Assembly (NCBI GenBank): GCA_036732045.1
Contig: DAINDD010000001.1
Coordinates: 60,828 to 122,729, forward strand
Source: Chloroflexota bacterium
Lineage (GTDB): Bacteria > Chloroflexota > Dehalococcoidia > SM23-28-2 > RBG-16-64-32
Length of the DNA: 61,902 bases
Reading direction: 5' to 3'
The notes beneath the pieces are model-generated. The model saw only the letters and a list, made by a program, of their open reading frames with translations, did not search any database and was not told the origin of the DNA. This document shows, piece by piece, positions 33,002-39,485 of the stretch. Position 1 is the stretch's first letter. Every line of letters begins with the position of its first letter. The translations under genes and the position numbers were made by a program.

Positions 33002-33574
33002 TTACCCAGTCCCTGCAATCCCTAGCGTTTCCGCCACCGGCTTCAGCGCCTCGATCACGAACGCGATGTGCTCGTCCAGGTCCACGCCGAGCACTGCTGC
33101 GCCGTCGGTGATGTCCTCGCGGCGGACGGCGCGCGCGAAGCCTTTGTCCTTCATCTTCTTCTTGACCGAGGCCACGTCCACCTCGTGGATGCTCTTGCTC
33201 GGCCGCACCAATGCCACGGCGGTGATGAAGCCGGATAGCTCGTCGACGGCGAAGATCGCGCGGTCCATGTTGTTTTCGCGCACAACGCCCAGATCGTCCA
33301 AATAGAACGCGTGGCAGAGCACGGCGTGCACGATCTCCTCCGGCACGCCGCGCTCCCGCAGGATCGGGGCGCCCTTCTTCGGATGCTCCTCCGCATTCGG
33401 GTGCATCTCGTAGTCGAAGTCGTGCAGCAGCCCGACGCAGCCCCACATCTCCTCGTCCTCGCCGTACTTGCGGGCGTACGCGCGCATCGTCGCCTCTACC
33501 GCCAGGCCGTGCTTGCGCAACGCGTCCGCCTTCGTGTACTCACAGAGGATCTCCCAGGCTTCGTCTCGCTTCAT
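33002..33574 (-). CDS. HDIG-domain metal-dependent phosphohydrolase
   Basis: LRKHGLAVEA, GLLHDFDYE, AVDELSGFITAVALVRP, KKMKDKGFARAV. Confidence 0.9.
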   Translation of the reverse strand: MKRDEAWEILCEYTKADALRKHGLAVEATMRAYARKYGEDEEMWGCVGLLHDFDYEMHPNAEEHPKKGAPILRERGVPEEIVHAVLCHAFYLDDLGVVRENNMDRAIFAVDELSGFITAVALVRPSKSIHEVDVASVKKKMKDKGFARAVRREDITDGAAVLGVDLDEHIAFVIEALKPVAETLGIAGTG

Positions 33575-33829
33575 GGAACGCTCCTTCAAAAGATAGCCGC
33601 GGATTTTCGCGGATTGTACGCGGATTATGCAAGGGTAGCGGGTTGGGCTGTCAACGAATCGACACCGAATCAACGAATAGAACGCCGCATCCGCCTATCC
33701 GCTCATATCCTCCGTGAGTCCGATGCTGAGTGCTGAGAGCTAAACGCCAGCGTTGCCGCATAACTTGTCGCATTTCCGCGCGTCTAGACCTGAGGTACCA
33801 TAGGTGTACACAAAAAGAGGTGATCAGAT

Positions 33830-34720
33830 ATGCCGAGATCGATCTGGAACGGCGTCATTAGCTTCGGGATGGTCAGCATCCCGGTGAAGCTGTACACCGC
33901 CACGGAAGACAAGGACATCAGCTTCAACCTCCTGCACAAGGAGTGCGGGTCCCGTTTGAAGCAGATCAGATGGTGCCCGGTCCACGAGCGCGCAGTGGAG
34001 TGGAGCGAGATCGCCCGAGGCTATGAGTATGCCAAGGACGAGTACATCACGATGGACGACGCCGACTTTGAGAAGTTGCCGCTGCCCAGCAAGCACGCCG
34101 TCGAGCTTTCGGCGTTCGTGGATGCGGCGCAGATCGACCCGATCTACTACCAGCGCACGTACTATTTGGAGCCGGAGGAGAAGGGCGTCAAGCCGTACGC
34201 GCTGCTCATGCGCGCCTTGAAGGACAAGCAGCTCACCGGCATCGCCAAGATCGCGATCCGCAATAAGGAGCAGCTCTGCGCCCTGCGGCCGATGGACGGC
34301 TCGCTCGTCCTGGAAACCCTCTTCTACCCGGACGAGATCCGCGAAGTGCCGAGCGAAGTGCCAGACACCAAGGTTTCTGAGAAAGAGCTCGACATGGCGA
34401 CGGCGCTGATCGATCTCCTCCGCGACGACTTCGAGCCGGAGAAGTACAAGGACGAGTATCGCGAGGCGCTAATGCAGGTGATCGACGCCAAGCTCGAAGG
34501 TGAAGAGCTATCGGCGCCGAAGGCCACGCGCCCGGCCAAGATCACCGACCTCATGACCGCGCTCAAAGCCAGCGTCGAAGCTGCGAAGAAGGGCCAGAAG
34601 AGCCGAGCCCCTGCTGAGGAGCAGGATGAGGTCACACCTCGCCGCCGCAAGAAGGCCGCCGCTGACGAGGACCACGACGAAGTTACTCCCCGTCGCCGCA
34701 AAAAGGCCGCCGCCGGCTAA
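33830..34720 (+). CDS. ku: NHEJ protein Ku
   Basis: RSIWNGVISFGMVSIPVKLYTA, IDPIYYQRTYYL, ETLFYPDEIR, DLMTALKAS; GAGGTG RBS. Confidence 0.96.
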   Translation: MPRSIWNGVISFGMVSIPVKLYTATEDKDISFNLLHKECGSRLKQIRWCPVHERAVEWSEIARGYEYAKDEYITMDDADFEKLPLPSKHAVELSAFVDAAQIDPIYYQRTYYLEPEEKGVKPYALLMRALKDKQLTGIAKIAIRNKEQLCALRPMDGSLVLETLFYPDEIREVPSEVPDTKVSEKELDMATALIDLLRDDFEPEKYKDEYREALMQVIDAKLEGEELSAPKATRPAKITDLMTALKASVEAAKKGQKSRAPAEEQDEVTPRRRKKAAADEDHDEVTPRRRKKAAAG

Positions 34721-34779
34721 CCCCCGGTTGGTGCGACCACAGTTCGCGGTGCTCACTTAACGCGCGATAATGGGTGCGC

Positions 34780-37623
34780 ATGCTCAAGGAATACGGCCGG
34801 AAGCGCGACTTCCAGAAGACGTCCGAGCCGCCGCCGCATCCGCCCGCGAAACACGACGGCCGGCTCATGTTCGTTGTCCAGAAGCACGACGCCAGCCGCC
34901 TGCACTACGACTTCCGGCTGGAGTTCGAGGGCGTCCTCAAGTCATGGCCCATCCCGAAGGGCCCTTCGCTCGACCCCAAGGACAAGCGGCTTGCCGTCAT
35001 GGTGGAGGACCATCCCCTCGACTACGCCTCGTTCGAAGGTGTCATCCCGAAGGGTGAGTACGGCGGCGGACAGGTAATCGTCTGGGACGCCGGGACGTAC
35101 TCTCCGGACGAAGAAGGCGTGCTCTCTTGGGACGACCGCGACGAGGCCGACCGCCGGATGCAAGAGGGCCTCGCGCGGGGGAAGCTCTCCGTCTACTTGC
35201 AGGGCCATAAGCTCAAGGGGTCGTTCACGCTCGTCAAGATCGCCCGCGCCGAGAAGGAGTGGCTCTTCATCAAGCACAAGGACCGCTTCGTCGACACCGA
35301 GCGAGACGTGACGCTGGAACACCGCTCGATCATCTCCGGCCTGAGCATCGCCGACATCAAGGCCGGCCTCCTGCCGGACCGCGTGCACCAGCGACTCATC
35401 GTTCACCCGAAGGACGCGCGCGGCGCCAAGCGCACTGCCTTCCCAAAGTCGCTGGAGCCGATGCAGGGCACCCTCAGCGAGGCGCCATTCTCCTCGCCGG
35501 ACTGGTACTTCGAGCCGAAGATGGACGGCGTCCGCGCGATCGTCTTCATCAACGGCGATAGCGTTCGCGTGATCTCCCGCAGCGGCCTCGACGCGACGCG
35601 GCAGTACCCGACGATCGTCGCCGAAATGGCGGAGCAGACGGAGCGCCACCTCGTCCTGGACGGCGAGATCGTGGCGCTGAACGAGAAGGGCGTGCCGTCC
35701 TTCCAGACGATCCAGCAGCGCCTCAACCTGCAGCGCGACTCCGACATCCGCAAGATGGACGAGCAGATCCCCGTTTACTTCTACGGCTTTGATATTCTCT
35801 ACGCCGGCGGCTATGACCTGCGCGGCGCCCCGCTCAGCGACCGCAAGGCGCTTCTCAAGCAGCTGCTCGTGCCGACTGACCACATCCACCTGCTGGAGCA
35901 CTTCGAAGAGGACGGCGTGGCGGCGTACCAGGGCGCGATCGCCGCCGGGTTGGAGGGCGTCATGGCCAAGAGGCGCGACAGCGTCTACGAGTCCGGGCGT
36001 CGCTCGAAGGCCTGGCTGAAGGTGAAGGGCACGCTGGAGGACGAGTTTGTCGTGGGCGGCTACACCGGCGGCACCGGCGGCCGCGCGAAGACGTTCGGCT
36101 CGCTCCTCGTGGGGCAATACGATGACCAAGGTCGCCTCGTCTACGCCGGAAACGTGGGCACCGGCTTCGACGAAAAGACGCTAACCTCGCTCCTCAAGCG
36201 CCTCGACTCCCTGAAGACGGACAGATCCCCGTTCGACATCATGACGCCGGGAACGTCACGCTTCGGCCGCCCCAAGGACGTGCTGATCACATGGGTGAAG
36301 CCGGAGCTAGTCGCGCGGGTGAAATTCGCCGAGTGGACGAACGATGGCCACCTACGCGCGCCGAGCTTCCTCGGCCTGCGCGACGACAAACCCCCGCATG
36401 ATGTCCACCGAGAAGTAGTTGTGACGCCGCCGGACGACCCGGACGACGATCCGTCGGCGCGCCGGGTATCCGCTCACGCTGAGGCTCTCGAAGCGCGAGC
36501 GGATGAGCGTGGGCGACGACCATCGAAGCGCCGCAAGGCCTCTGCCTCAACGGACGATCCGCTCGTTGCCGACGTCCTCGAGCAGCTCGAGCAGGAGGCT
36601 GAGAAGTTCGTGCTCAAGGTCGGCGACGATAAGGTGCCGCTGAGCAATCTCGACAAGCCACTCTGGCCGGAGTGGGAAAAGCGCCGCCCGCTCACCAAGC
36701 GCGACTTGCTCGTCTACTTCGCGCGCGTCTCCCCGTACCTCCTGCCGCACCTGCACGGCCGGCCGATCACGCTCACCCGCTACCCCAACGGCATCGAGGC
36801 CAAGCACTTCTATCAAAAGCACTGGGAGAGCAAGCTGCCGCCGTTCGTCGACCCGGTGACGGTCTGGTCGGAGCAGTTCCACACCGACCAGGAGTACTTG
36901 CTCTGCAACAACGTGCCGACGCTGCTCTGGCTGGGCCAGCTCGCCGACATCGAGCTGCACACGTGGTACTCGCGCGTCGACAAAGGACCGGACGGCGCGC
37001 GCCTGCCGGACTACACGGGCGGTGGCGAGGAGAAGTTCGACCGATCCCGCCTCAACTTCCCCGACTTCATCGTCTTCGACCTCGACCCGTACATCTACTC
37101 AGGGGAGGAGAAGCACGGCGCCGAGCCGGAGCTCAACCGCAAGGCGTTCCTCAAGACCTGTGACGTGGCGTTCTGGCTGAAAGACCTGCTCGACTCGCTA
37201 TCGCTGTCGTCGTTCGTGAAGACGACCGGCAAGACAGGCTTGCACATCTACGTCCCCATCGTCCGCCACTTCGACTACGACGCCGTGCGCTCCGCGGCCG
37301 AGACCGTTGGCCGCTTCCTCGTGCGCGCCCACCCGAAAGACGTCACGATGGAGTGGAGCGTCCCCAAGCGCGCCGACAAAATCTTTTTCGACCACAACCA
37401 GAACGTGAAAGGCAAGACGCTGGCCTCCCTCTACTCGCCGCGGCCGGTCGGCTGGGCTGGCGTCTCGATGCCCCTGCGCTGGGATGAGCTGCGCGACATC
37501 TACCCCACGCACTTCACAATACTTAACGCTTGCGACCGCCTCGCGGAAACAGGCGACCTCTGGTCTAACATCCTCGCCGAAAAGCACGACCTGGCAGGGA
37601 TGCTGGAGGCGACGGGAGCCTAG
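34780..37623 (+). CDS. ligD: NHEJ ligase D (phosphoesterase - ligase - polymerase order)
   Basis: PE: QKHDASRLHYDFRLE; LIG: EPKMDG, LDGEIV, EGVMAK, WLKVK; POL: FDLDP, KTTGKTGLHIYVP. Confidence 0.96.
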   Translation: MLKEYGRKRDFQKTSEPPPHPPAKHDGRLMFVVQKHDASRLHYDFRLEFEGVLKSWPIPKGPSLDPKDKRLAVMVEDHPLDYASFEGVIPKGEYGGGQVIVWDAGTYSPDEEGVLSWDDRDEADRRMQEGLARGKLSVYLQGHKLKGSFTLVKIARAEKEWLFIKHKDRFVDTERDVTLEHRSIISGLSIADIKAGLLPDRVHQRLIVHPKDARGAKRTAFPKSLEPMQGTLSEAPFSSPDWYFEPKMDGVRAIVFINGDSVRVISRSGLDATRQYPTIVAEMAEQTERHLVLDGEIVALNEKGVPSFQTIQQRLNLQRDSDIRKMDEQIPVYFYGFDILYAGGYDLRGAPLSDRKALLKQLLVPTDHIHLLEHFEEDGVAAYQGAIAAGLEGVMAKRRDSVYESGRRSKAWLKVKGTLEDEFVVGGYTGGTGGRAKTFGSLLVGQYDDQGRLVYAGNVGTGFDEKTLTSLLKRLDSLKTDRSPFDIMTPGTSRFGRPKDVLITWVKPELVARVKFAEWTNDGHLRAPSFLGLRDDKPPHDVHREVVVTPPDDPDDDPSARRVSAHAEALEARADERGRRPSKRRKASASTDDPLVADVLEQLEQEAEKFVLKVGDDKVPLSNLDKPLWPEWEKRRPLTKRDLLVYFARVSPYLLPHLHGRPITLTRYPNGIEAKHFYQKHWESKLPPFVDPVTVWSEQFHTDQEYLLCNNVPTLLWLGQLADIELHTWYSRVDKGPDGARLPDYTGGGEEKFDRSRLNFPDFIVFDLDPYIYSGEEKHGAEPELNRKAFLKTCDVAFWLKDLLDSLSLSSFVKTTGKTGLHIYVPIVRHFDYDAVRSAAETVGRFLVRAHPKDVTMEWSVPKRADKIFFDHNQNVKGKTLASLYSPRPVGWAGVSMPLRWDELRDIYPTHFTILNACDRLAETGDLWSNILAEKHDLAGMLEATGA

Positions 37624-37817
37624 AACGGACCCAACTTCTCGTCGTCCGCCGAACCCTCCTCGGAGCTGGACGCCGGCAGGTCGATTAGCAGCGCCATGCC
37701 GATGAAGAACAGGGCGCCCAGCGCGACGAAATAGTCGTGTGTGGCCACCGCGCCCGCCAGCCAGAACGCACTGATCGCCATGTTGATCAGGAACCACGAG
37801 AAAGAGTTGTCGAACAC
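37620..37817 (-). CDS. Small 65-aa membrane protein with two hydrophobic segments
   Basis: GGAG RBS; GTG overlaps upstream TAG (TAGTG); FSWFLINMAISAFWLAGAVA and YFVALGALFFIGMALLI. Confidence 0.6.
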   Translation of the reverse strand: MFDNSFSWFLINMAISAFWLAGAVATHDYFVALGALFFIGMALLIDLPASSSEEGSADDEKLGPF

Positions 37818-38872
37818 TACTCCGTCTCCGAGACCCGGCAGCTCTCGGGCGGCACGTCCGGGCGCAGCGCCTTGAACACCGGGAATCGCAGGCGTCCGTC
37901 CCGGGCTGGCTCGGCGTAGTTTATCGCCGCTACGACCTCCGGCCGGCACCAGAAGACCAGCCGCTCCAGCGTCGGCTCTTCCGAGAACTGGCAGGCCGCC
38001 GTCGTCGCCTCGTCCAGGCGGCGGACAAGCTCGCCGATCTCATCCTGGAAGCCGCCGCTCACCTCGCCTGCAAAATCGAGTTGTCCGTCCTCGCGCAAGA
38101 GGCCCAGCAGCAGCGACGAGATCGCCTCACGCGGCCTCGAACCGCCGCGCGGGTTCCAGCGGCCTCCGTAAGTGAACCCGCCCACGATGAAGTCGCGCTT
38201 CTTTTGCACCCGCACCGTCAGCCAGGCCCGGCTGCGCTGGCCCGTCAGGTAGCGGCTGTCCGCCTCCTTGGCGACGATGCCCTCCAGTCCGTGCTCCCGC
38301 GCTGCTTCGAAGAAAGCGACGCCGTCCTTCGTCACATAGTCCGGAACGGCGATCGTTGCATCGGGCCGCACGAGGCTGCGCAGCATTTCCTTTCGCCGCT
38401 GCAGCGCCCAGCCGGTCACAGCCTGCCGCTCCTGGTACACGAGGTCGAACGCCTGCAGCGTCACCGGGTATTGCTCGGCGAGCGATCGGGCGGTCTCCGC
38501 GTCGTCCACCGCCAGGCGGTGGCGCAGCCGTGAGAAGTCGGGCCGCCCGTCGGCGTTCAGGCAAACGATCTCGCCGTCGATGACCATCCCCGACTCCCGC
38601 AGGCGCCCGGCGAGCGAGGACAGCTCCGGGTAGCGCTGCGTCACATCGCGACCCCAGCGGTCTTGCAGACGGACGTTGCCCTGCTCGGCGAAGGCCAGCG
38701 AGCGGACGCCGTCCCACAATACCTCGAAAACGTGAGCAGGCGAATCGAACGGTTCAGCGGCGGCCGCCGGCAGCATCGGCTCGATCACCTGTGGCAAGGT
38801 CGCGCGGGCGGGCATGGCGGGCGGCGCCGCAGCTTGCCGGCGCCCGTGGCGAAGTGTCATCGCCCGCCCCAC
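37817..38872 (-). CDS. ATP-dependent DNA ligase homologue lacking catalytic lysines (start uncertain: 38872, 38860 or 38815)
   Basis: IEPML, FEVLWDGVR, IDGEIV, AFDLVY, EGIVAK, WLTVR, OB-fold LRFPVFKALRPD. Confidence 0.85.
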   Translation of the reverse strand: MGRAMTLRHGRRQAAAPPAMPARATLPQVIEPMLPAAAAEPFDSPAHVFEVLWDGVRSLAFAEQGNVRLQDRWGRDVTQRYPELSSLAGRLRESGMVIDGEIVCLNADGRPDFSRLRHRLAVDDAETARSLAEQYPVTLQAFDLVYQERQAVTGWALQRRKEMLRSLVRPDATIAVPDYVTKDGVAFFEAAREHGLEGIVAKEADSRYLTGQRSRAWLTVRVQKKRDFIVGGFTYGGRWNPRGGSRPREAISSLLLGLLREDGQLDFAGEVSGGFQDEIGELVRRLDEATTAACQFSEEPTLERLVFWCRPEVVAAINYAEPARDGRLRFPVFKALRPDVPPESCRVSETE

Positions 38873-39173
38873 GTATTCATCTTATTCAGAAGATAGCGCA
38901 GGCTCGGGGCGTCGTCCACATTGCGATGACACGGGGGAACCGGGAAATGGCGACTGGGATCATACCCTCGAGGTCGGCCCTTACTCCTGTTCGCGGTTCC
39001 TCCCCGGCTAACTGAAAAGTCACGCCTCTGTAACCGTTTCTTAACCGAAAGCCGCCATGCCTGTCCTACTATTCAATAGCCGCGCCTTGGTTCTCATCGC
39101 CGCACCCCCAAACGACGGAGAGAGCAGCGCGCTTTTTTTCTTTCTCCAGGATTTGGGGCTACACTAGAAGCAG

Positions 39174-39485
39174 ATGGCAAACAAGGTTCATGAAAACGGC
39201 TGGTACATCTGGTCCAGCCATGGCACAGTCCTCTTCTACGTCGCGCTGAACCCGGGATGCACGATCGCCGAAATCGCTGAGGGCCTTTGTCTCACACAGC
39301 GGACCATCTGGGGCGTCGTCGGAGACCTGCGTCGCGCCGGCATGCTCAACATCACCCGCGAAGGACGCCGACATCGCTACAGCGTTAAGCTCGACGCCAC
39401 CTTCCGCCACCCGACGATCGAGAGCGTCCCCCTGCGCACGCTCTTTGGGCGGCTGCCCCAAGTCCGCCAGGCGACGACCGCCTAA
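39174..39485 (+). CDS. Small winged helix-turn-helix protein
   Basis: HGTVLFYVALNPGCTIAEIAEGLCLTQRTIWGVVGDLRRAGML...REGRRHRYSV. Confidence 0.8.
   Translation: MANKVHENGWYIWSSHGTVLFYVALNPGCTIAEIAEGLCLTQRTIWGVVGDLRRAGMLNITREGRRHRYSVKLDATFRHPTIESVPLRTLFGRLPQVRQATTA

Follow-up and report, generated by a model that had tools for sequence, protein, structure and literature searches.

A LigD-type ligase homologue without its catalytic lysine is conserved beside ku and ligD in Chloroflexota and Dormibacteria

Introduction

Bacterial NHEJ (non-homologous end joining) is taught, and has been engineered, as a minimal two-component system consisting of Ku and LigD. Here, we describe a gene that adjoins this pair in a 61,902-nt stretch of DNA from a Chloroflexota bacterium (GenBank assembly GCA_036732045.1, contig DAINDD010000001.1), hereafter the window, and its homologues elsewhere. 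We name pLig the standalone LigD-type ligase-domain homologues without the catalytic lysine, of which the product of this gene is one.

The chemistry that pLig would be expected to perform is known from LigD of Mycobacterium tuberculosis (Mtb). In its ligase domain, Glu479 and Lys618 contact the adenine, Arg486 contacts the ribose, Arg501, Arg629, Lys635 and Lys637 contact the phosphates, and Glu613 binds the catalytic metal (reviewed in PMC8656161). The K481M mutation blocks step 1, leaving a protein that binds ATP-Mg and cannot react (PMC7470946), and sealing is abolished by K637A or E613A (PMC8656161). Two other systems bear on what a ligase without chemistry might do: in Bacillus subtilis the ligase domain of LigD is contacted by Ku (PMC13201618), and a Lig4 without catalytic activity has been seen to promote both synapsis and repair (PMC9638927, PMC11754673, bioRxiv 10.1101/2022.10.26.513880). 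A survey of bacterial NHEJ in 5,973 genomes counts LIG domains regardless of their catalytic residues.

A LigD-type ligase domain without its catalytic lysine

The pLig gene of the window (Table 1) is convergent with ligD and not co-transcribed with it. Its true start is probably the ATG at 38860, which would give a product of 347 aa, because the called homologues are all 347 aa and a Shine-Dalgarno-like box (GAGGGG/GTGGGG) is conserved 6-7 nt 5' of this codon.

Table 1. Features of the window (position 1 is its first nucleotide).
Feature	Position	Strand	Description
pLig	37817..38872	-	Standalone LigD-type ligase-domain homologue; 351 codons from GTG 38872, frame unbroken
pLig codon 52	38717..38719	-	TTG (Leu), aligned with the adenylated motif I Lys (Mtb LigD K481)
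pLig motif V	38210..38224	-	WLTVR, codons 217-221; Mtb K635 and K637 both replaced
65-aa open reading frame	37620..37817	-	Two predicted transmembrane helices, acidic Ser-rich tail (DLPASSSEEGSADDEKLGPF); unannotated
LigD	34774..37623	+	PE-Lig-Pol, 949 aa; FEPKMDG and WLKVK intact; convergent with pLig
Ku	33830..34720	+	296 aa; Pfam PF02735 1.9e-52, TIGR02772 309.6 bits
Candidate sigma-70-like promoter of pLig	38890..38919	-	GTGGAC - 18 nt - TATCTT, about 30-60 nt 5' of the ATG
Two conserved non-coding blocks	39028..39117	-	Between pLig and the MarR-like gene; conserved above the surrounding intergenic sequence
Block A	39089-39117	-	CGTCGTTTGGGGGTGCGGCGATGAGAACC; 29 nt, flanked by GCGCGC...GCGCGC and an A/T run
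Block B	39028-39047	-	CGGTTAAGAAACGGTTACAG; then CGTGAC and GTTAG
MarR-like winged-helix protein	39174..39485	+	103 aa, divergent from pLig; Pfam MarR_2 below cut-off
HD-domain phosphohydrolase gene	33002-33673	-	Next to ku

That pLig has the architecture of a LigD ligase domain is clear from several comparisons. Pfam recognises DNA_ligase_A_M (PF01068, 2e-26) followed by the C-terminal OB domain DNA_ligase_A_C (PF04679, 4.7e-18), whose beta-strands occupy residues 224-336 of an AlphaFold2 model. This model, computed from 87 sequences, has a mean predicted local distance difference test score of 93 and adopts a LigD-like fold, with nucleotidyltransferase and OB domains. The Mtb LigD ligase domain is the closest solved relative both by sequence (1vs0/6nhz, E 1e-42) and in a Foldseek search with the model (6nhx/6nhz, E 5e-27), which also returned closed archaeal ligases and Lig1. 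The curated NCBIfam profiles are more severe. With TIGR02779, the LigD-type NHEJ ligase domain, pLig scores 223.3 bits, just below the cut-off of 227.75, whereas the LigD of the window scores 300.9 bits; with NF006078/PRK08224, the LigC-type profile, it scores 140.9 bits, far under the cut-off of 296.

The original prediction, made from the letters alone, had noticed that the motif I lysine is replaced by leucine (TTG at 38717-38719) and that motif V has lost its lysines, and both readings were confirmed by the reading frame and by alignment to Mtb LigD. In motif I, FEVLWDG aligns to FEGKWDG, which places L52 on K481; in motif V, WLTVR aligns to WVKDK, which places T219 on K635 and R221 on K637. 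Motifs III (VIDGEIV), IIIa (FDLVY) and IV (EGIVAK) and the OB domain are intact in an unbroken frame, and the neighbouring LigD retains its own motif I and motif V lysines, also as had been claimed. We found one further loss, Ala204 in place of the arginine two positions past the motif IV lysine, which is conserved in lysine-containing forms. Motif VI reads RPDV and has no lysine either, but this was rejected as an extra sign of death since the lysine-containing standalone relatives also have RPDV.

With the nucleophile and both motif V lysines gone, pLig is predicted to be unable to use the canonical lysyl-AMP route, and it is very probably a functional protein that does not self-adenylylate. 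It should not carry a DNA ligase annotation, because the defining catalytic features are missing and the curated NCBIfam cut-offs are not reached.

The loss of the lysine is conserved

A search of a 5.8-billion-protein collection returned 326 matches at E <= 1e-10, the best 120 of which were examined. The resulting alignment comprises 119 near-full-length sequences, made up of 117 homologues together with the query, the ligase domain of the window LigD, and Mtb LigD. The motif I lysine is absent from 98 of these 119 (97 homologues and the query), with a hydrophobic residue (L, I, C, M, A or Y) in its place, and all 98 reading frames are intact over a range of ~50-92% identity. Another 19 homologues, which we call K-forms, keep EVKWDG together with WLKLKV. 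The source names of the homologues are Chloroflexota, Dehalococcoidia and Candidatus Dormibacteria. A second collection, of 1.84 billion proteins clustered at 50% identity, yielded 19 full-length Lys-less proteins among the best 150 cluster representatives (L, A, D, R, I, M, W or N at this position), all standalone and about 300-400 aa long.

E50 and K202, which correspond to adenine contacts (Mtb E479 and K618), R57, which corresponds to the ribose contact (Mtb R486), and R213 (Mtb R629) are 92-100% conserved among Lys-less sequences. Conservation does not extend to the nucleophile, to either motif V lysine or, variably, to the two glutamates. The Leu, Met and Ile forms may have kept the ability to bind an adenine nucleotide or the 5'-adenylated end of a DNA. 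Decay has gone further in one orthologous subclade (P0022-P0044), which shares the gene context of the window: it is also without the glutamates of motif III (DGAIV) and motif IV (LGIVAK) and the aspartate of motif I (WEG), and the second position of its motif V is L, M, P, V, E, H or F.

A column-by-column comparison of the two groups showed that K52, E101, R204, K219, K221 and other positions, including a stretch of the OB domain, are conserved in K-forms only, and that conservation specific to the Lys-less group is limited to D178 and V180. This comparison led us to reject a relocated catalytic lysine of the WNK type: the Lys-less group has no new conserved lysine, K161 and K202 being equally conserved in K-forms. 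The mean net charge of the Lys-less group is -4.3, against -1.0 for K-forms. As a mark of lost DNA binding this shift was set aside, since it amounts to only ~3 charges and is explained by the lost lysines.

Two variants deserve separate mention. Several divergent Lys-less members (P0135, P0151, P0170, P0171, P0182, P0279 and P0283) share a conserved C-terminal tail ending in L-(E/D)-L-P-Q-L-P-F, which resembles a short linear docking motif and is also found in loci L024 (7001-8107) and L025 (7001-8065); in this group motif VI is HPEV and motif IV is DAVVAK. A further group (P0128, P0131, P0284, P0306, P0309, P0313 and more) keeps the motif I lysine and has lost the aspartate (KWGG), together with both lysines of motif V (WQEVRA). 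Its members may have become inactive by another path, or their active site may be an unusual one.

pLig is maintained by purifying selection

We estimated the ratio of non-synonymous to synonymous substitution rates (dN/dS) by the Nei-Gojobori method. Between the window and a 92%-identical locus, dN/dS is 0.12 for pLig at a synonymous divergence (dS) of 0.32 (70 synonymous and 29 non-synonymous differences), and 0.155 for SelA next door. In three pairs at ~75-80% identity, the values are 0.14-0.20 for pLig, 0.22-0.28 for LigD and 0.17-0.20 for Ku. pLig, a folded protein, is thus constrained as strongly as the proteins encoded beside it. Having lost its catalytic residues while keeping its fold and purifying selection across the clade, it has the defining marks of a pseudoenzyme.

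pLig belongs to the Ku-LigD module

Gene surroundings were read for 17 Lys-less loci and two K-form loci; a scan of a genome collection with the pLig protein alone gave three close loci. The gene for pLig adjoins ku in all 17 Lys-less loci and ligD in 16 of them (the exception being L023), and this linkage spans three gene orders and two phyla. In the Chloroflexota clade (the window, L001-L003, L015-L020, L026-L027), pLig is convergent with ligD and ku lies just beyond, an arrangement that persists although the other flank has changed (SelA in some loci, MgsA in others); the sequence of L028 stops just past the small open reading frame (ORF) that follows pLig, before ligD. In L025, a Dormibacteria contig with a pLig of 35-40% identity, ku is followed on one strand by pLig and then by ligD, with gaps of 8-10 nt. 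In L024, from another lineage, pLig precedes ligD with an 8-nt gap and ku is 5 kb away, and in L023, from a third, pLig follows ku with a 4-nt overlap and no ligD alongside. Wherever a LigD is linked to a Lys-less gene, it retains its lysine.

pLig therefore belongs genetically to the Ku-LigD end-joining module, and gene context and sequence together make it likely that it is an NHEJ accessory factor. The original prediction of an evolved pseudo-ligase tied to NHEJ is thus supported on each of the points on which it could be checked, namely that the loss of the lysine is conserved down to ~50% identity, that the gene is under purifying selection and that it is linked to ku and ligD. Close orthologues do not all retain KxDG. 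The roles that it had listed, a DNA-end or nick-binding scaffold, a regulator or an inhibitor, are candidates.

The ligD gene itself is irregular in two loci. In L019 (10379-12054), beside an intact Lys-less gene, it is split into three short called genes (an OB fragment, an unnamed one and a PE fragment), and in L002 its longest ORF is only 590 aa. These could be assembly indel errors or real ligD decay. A gene of the PF04120 family (low-affinity iron permease) stands between ligD and ku in several relatives, including L015 (14242-14739) and L017 (14123-14653); the window has none, its ku and ligD being 53 nt apart.

Lysine-containing relatives and the origin of pLig

The two K-form loci show what pLig may have evolved from. 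Their lysine-containing standalone ligases (L021 = P0106, L022 = P0096) occupy the same slot, convergent with ligD-ku, with a DUF72 gene between ligase and ligD. A gene for an OmpR-type response regulator is divergent upstream of the ligase in both, accompanied in L021 by one for a histidine kinase, which suggests two-component control of the ancestral arrangement.

In a distance-based neighbour-joining tree, whose root is uncertain, so that the number of losses it implies is a lower bound, K-forms are one cluster nested among Lys-less lineages. P0080 and P0118 have methionine at motif I, a one-base change from AAG, and keep WLKLKV; in the neighbour lists examined they are 76-78% identical to K-forms and at most 69% identical to Lys-less proteins outside their own pair. 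Intermediates with leucine at motif I and KLK or KVK at motif V also exist, from which it appears that motif V decays progressively once the lysine is lost. The lysine was thus lost at least twice, and the ancestral state would have been a second, active ligase adjoining ku-ligD, in which the other catalytic residues decayed after loss of the nucleophile. We would argue that, since the lysine was repeatedly lost and the protein kept, the selected function of this paralogue needs no chemistry.

A translationally coupled small membrane protein

In the clade of the window, pLig is not alone. The GTG start of the 65-aa ORF overlaps the TAG stop of pLig (taGTG), and the same protein with a stop/start overlap (TGATG, TAGTG or TAATG) is found in the window, L001, L002, L003, L015, L017, L026 and L028; in L016, the ATG of the small ORF directly abuts the TAG of pLig. 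The dead ligase and this membrane micro-protein form a two-gene, translationally coupled operon in this clade. A profile search found 80 members of the small-protein family, all unnamed and without Pfam domains, 22 of which are on contigs whose length is exactly that of contigs with pLig hits. When a 35%-identical member was taken as the starting point of a look-up, its gene too proved to lie just after a pLig gene. The small protein is under selection (dN/dS 0.24), and it is absent from the K-form loci and from L020. Searches of Pfam and PADLOC with the small ORF gave no match. A component of anti-phage defence was rejected, since PADLOC gave nothing for either pLig or the small ORF.

The upstream region and candidate regulation

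The candidate promoter of pLig is conserved in the window, L001, L002 and L015, and was missed by a strict consensus scan. Further upstream are the two conserved blocks. Block A is identical in four loci, with a 21-nt core kept in L016 and L026 (56% protein identity). The region of block B, present in all clade loci examined, contains four GGTTA-like direct repeats ~11 bp apart. A structured RNA was considered and set aside: the blocks matched nothing in Rfam, the pLig strand showed no compensatory pairs, and those on the opposite strand were weak and confined to a variable hairpin, which is not convincing covariation. Because of this lack of an Rfam match and of compensatory pairs on the pLig strand, the blocks are likelier to be protein-binding DNA, and we regard them as probably an operator or activator site. 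The MarR-like protein encoded divergently, whose gene has the same position in L015, L017/L018 and L028 and a dN/dS of 0.15, is a possible regulator of the pLig operon.

On the far side of ku, the HD-domain gene lies within ~1 kb of ku and on the opposite strand in the window, L015, L016, L017/L018, L019 and L026/L027. A single gene separates the two in L015 and in L026/L027; in the other loci they are immediate, divergent neighbours. In most of these loci the HD gene is followed by a LysM-SLT gene. The NHEJ module of this clade may thus have a further conserved neighbour in the HD gene.

What might pLig do?

Our preferred reading, which we hold only tentatively, is that pLig is a non-catalytic structural factor associated with Ku and LigD, that is, a third NHEJ subunit. 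In such a scheme, (i) pLig would dock on Ku via the surface used by the ligase domain of LigD itself, (ii) its nucleotidyltransferase-OB clamp and adenine pocket would hold the break, nick or adenylated nick on one strand, (iii) catalytically competent LigD would process and seal, and (iv) in the clade of the window, the 65-aa membrane protein may position or restrain pLig at the membrane. We favour a structural subunit over an inhibitory or other role because the gene is in an operon with ku in two distant lineages, and with ligD in one of them, because LigD's ligase domain is a known contact of Ku (PMC13201618), because the whole DNA-clamping fold is preserved, and because dead Lig4 supports eukaryotic NHEJ structurally (PMC9638927, PMC11754673).

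Several points weigh against this reading. The role proposed for pLig is a prediction from sequence and gene context, and all its members come from metagenome-assembled genomes of uncultured organisms. The Chlorella virus ligase studied by Sriskanda and Shuman reportedly recognises 5'-phosphate nicks well only when it is adenylated. If classic ligases need adenylation for this, a Lys-less protein may bind ordinary nicks poorly. The Lys-less group is also slightly more acidic than the K-forms. A simple scaffold leaves the membrane partner unexplained. Finally, in the clade of the window pLig has its own candidate promoter and faces ligD, which would permit separate regulation and suits an antagonist no less than a partner.

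A more ambitious form of the structural reading is rather doubtful in our view. It holds that NHEJ in Chloroflexota and Dormibacterota would depart from the canonical pair of Ku and LigD by having a third subunit of its own, non-catalytic and derived more than once from a second ligase, whose retained adenine pocket serves as a sensor of a ligand or of 5'-adenylated DNA. In one large clade, a co-translated 65-aa micro-protein would tether or gate it at the membrane. pLig would then be the bacterial counterpart of scaffold functions of the Lig4/XRCC4 type.

That pLig is instead an antagonist or gatekeeper, which competes with LigD for Ku or for ends, or caps ends, and so limits mutagenic joining, strikes us as unlikely, although much in the clade of the window would suit it. 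There, pLig is convergent with ligD and would be transcribed apart from it, behind conserved upstream elements of its own and a winged-helix gene that points the other way, and its coupling to a membrane micro-protein suggests controlled localisation; the acidic tail of this protein could even mimic DNA, sequestering or releasing pLig. A standalone dead ligase domain would also be expected to occupy the Ku surface used by LigD (PMC13201618). However, in L025 and L023 the gene sits inside a ku(-ligD) operon with minimal gaps or overlaps, and fixed co-expression of this kind is more typical of the subunit of a complex than of an inhibitor under regulation.

Partial chemistry on adenylated DNA has a still smaller chance of being right. 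pLig would recognise ends or nicks that an abortive ligation by LigD has left 5'-adenylated, and would seal (step 3), de-adenylate or shield them. In its favour, the Lys-to-Ala form of the Chlorella virus ligase of Sriskanda and Shuman is said to seal pre-adenylated nicks. The adenine and ribose contacts are conserved in pLig (their roles being taken from PMC8656161), and the subclade of the window keeps D54, R57, E101, E197 and K202, with a conservative Lys-to-Arg change at R221, so that such a role is conceivable there. Orthologues in the same gene context have nonetheless lost the glutamates of motifs III and IV and accept L, M, P, V, E, H or F at the second motif V position. With metal-binding glutamates lost in these orthologues, a function common to the whole clade cannot need metal-dependent catalysis, and the progressive decay of motif V after lysine loss (the leucine forms with KLK or KVK) speaks against it as well.

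It is improbable that pLig has a job unrelated to end joining, nucleotide-binding or membrane-associated for instance, and stays near ku and ligD by inherited synteny only. Nothing known connects its membrane partner with DNA repair, and in the Chloroflexota clade the wider neighbourhood (the HD gene, LysM-SLT and SelA) is also syntenic, so linkage is partly a matter of shared ancestry. Yet the linkage survives the exchange of SelA and MgsA on the other flank, and distant lineages, with members at 35-45% identity, show it again in rearranged form, ku/ligD operons among them.

A ligase that still works, using another nucleophile or lysine, is very improbable: the fold and many pocket residues are intact, but no lysine has been relocated (K161 and K202 are equally conserved in K-forms), the motif V lysines and metal-binding glutamates are variably lost, and we know of no precedent in this superfamily. 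As for a sequencing error, which the original prediction had already thought unlikely, or a recently inactivated pseudogene, both are refuted by the two substitutions that AAG to TTG takes, by the Lys-less state of 97 independent homologues and by a dN/dS of 0.12-0.20 with no frame disruption seen.

Comparison with known systems

Bacterial ligases without their lysine, or a third conserved NHEJ component, are undescribed in the literature that we searched, including reviews of LigD and of ligases and the 5,973-genome survey, in agreement with the original prediction of an NHEJ component not described before. pLig is a pseudoenzyme derived from a known repair ligase, in a module whose architecture is undescribed. 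If it does act in bacterial NHEJ without catalysis, the pathway would gain in it a first accessory factor of its own that is not an enzyme, an idea that is directly testable in vitro with three or four recombinant proteins. There are also consequences for annotation, since public databases label these proteins 'DNA ligase' or 'bifunctional NHEJ protein LigD', which overstates the ligase complement of the genomes, and the linked membrane micro-protein family is entirely unannotated.

Close relatives are the standalone ligases with a lysine from Dehalococcoidia and other Chloroflexota (P0096, P0106 and their kin), which have the same size and position as pLig at 52-56% identity, keep EVKWDG, DGEIV and WLKLKV, and look catalytically competent from their motifs. 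The mycobacterial LigC gene lies away from ku-ligD, together with PrimPolC. Like pLig, LigC is a second standalone ATP-dependent ligase beside LigD in an NHEJ-proficient bacterium (PMC7719229), but it is catalytically active, and pLig is closer to the ligase domain of LigD itself. With that domain in Mtb LigD (1VS0; 6NHX/6NHZ), pLig shares the nucleotidyltransferase and OB fold and motifs III, IIIa and IV at ~32% identity; it differs in being a separate protein rather than a domain of a PE-Lig-Pol polypeptide, and in being naturally without K481, K635, K637 and the arginine two past the motif IV lysine. The engineered K481M mutant of Mtb LigD (PMC7470946, PMC8656161) is thus a laboratory mimic of the natural Leu, Met and Ile forms.

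The likeness to Lig4, an NHEJ ligase scaffold that contributes without chemistry, would for pLig be a functional analogy only. Dead Lig4 is an engineered mutant of the sole NHEJ ligase, whereas pLig is a natural dead paralogue beside an active LigD, and pLig has no BRCT/XRCC4 module. Where work in eukaryotes relies on engineered dead Lig4, pLig would offer a natural test of what a ligase scaffold contributes apart from chemistry.

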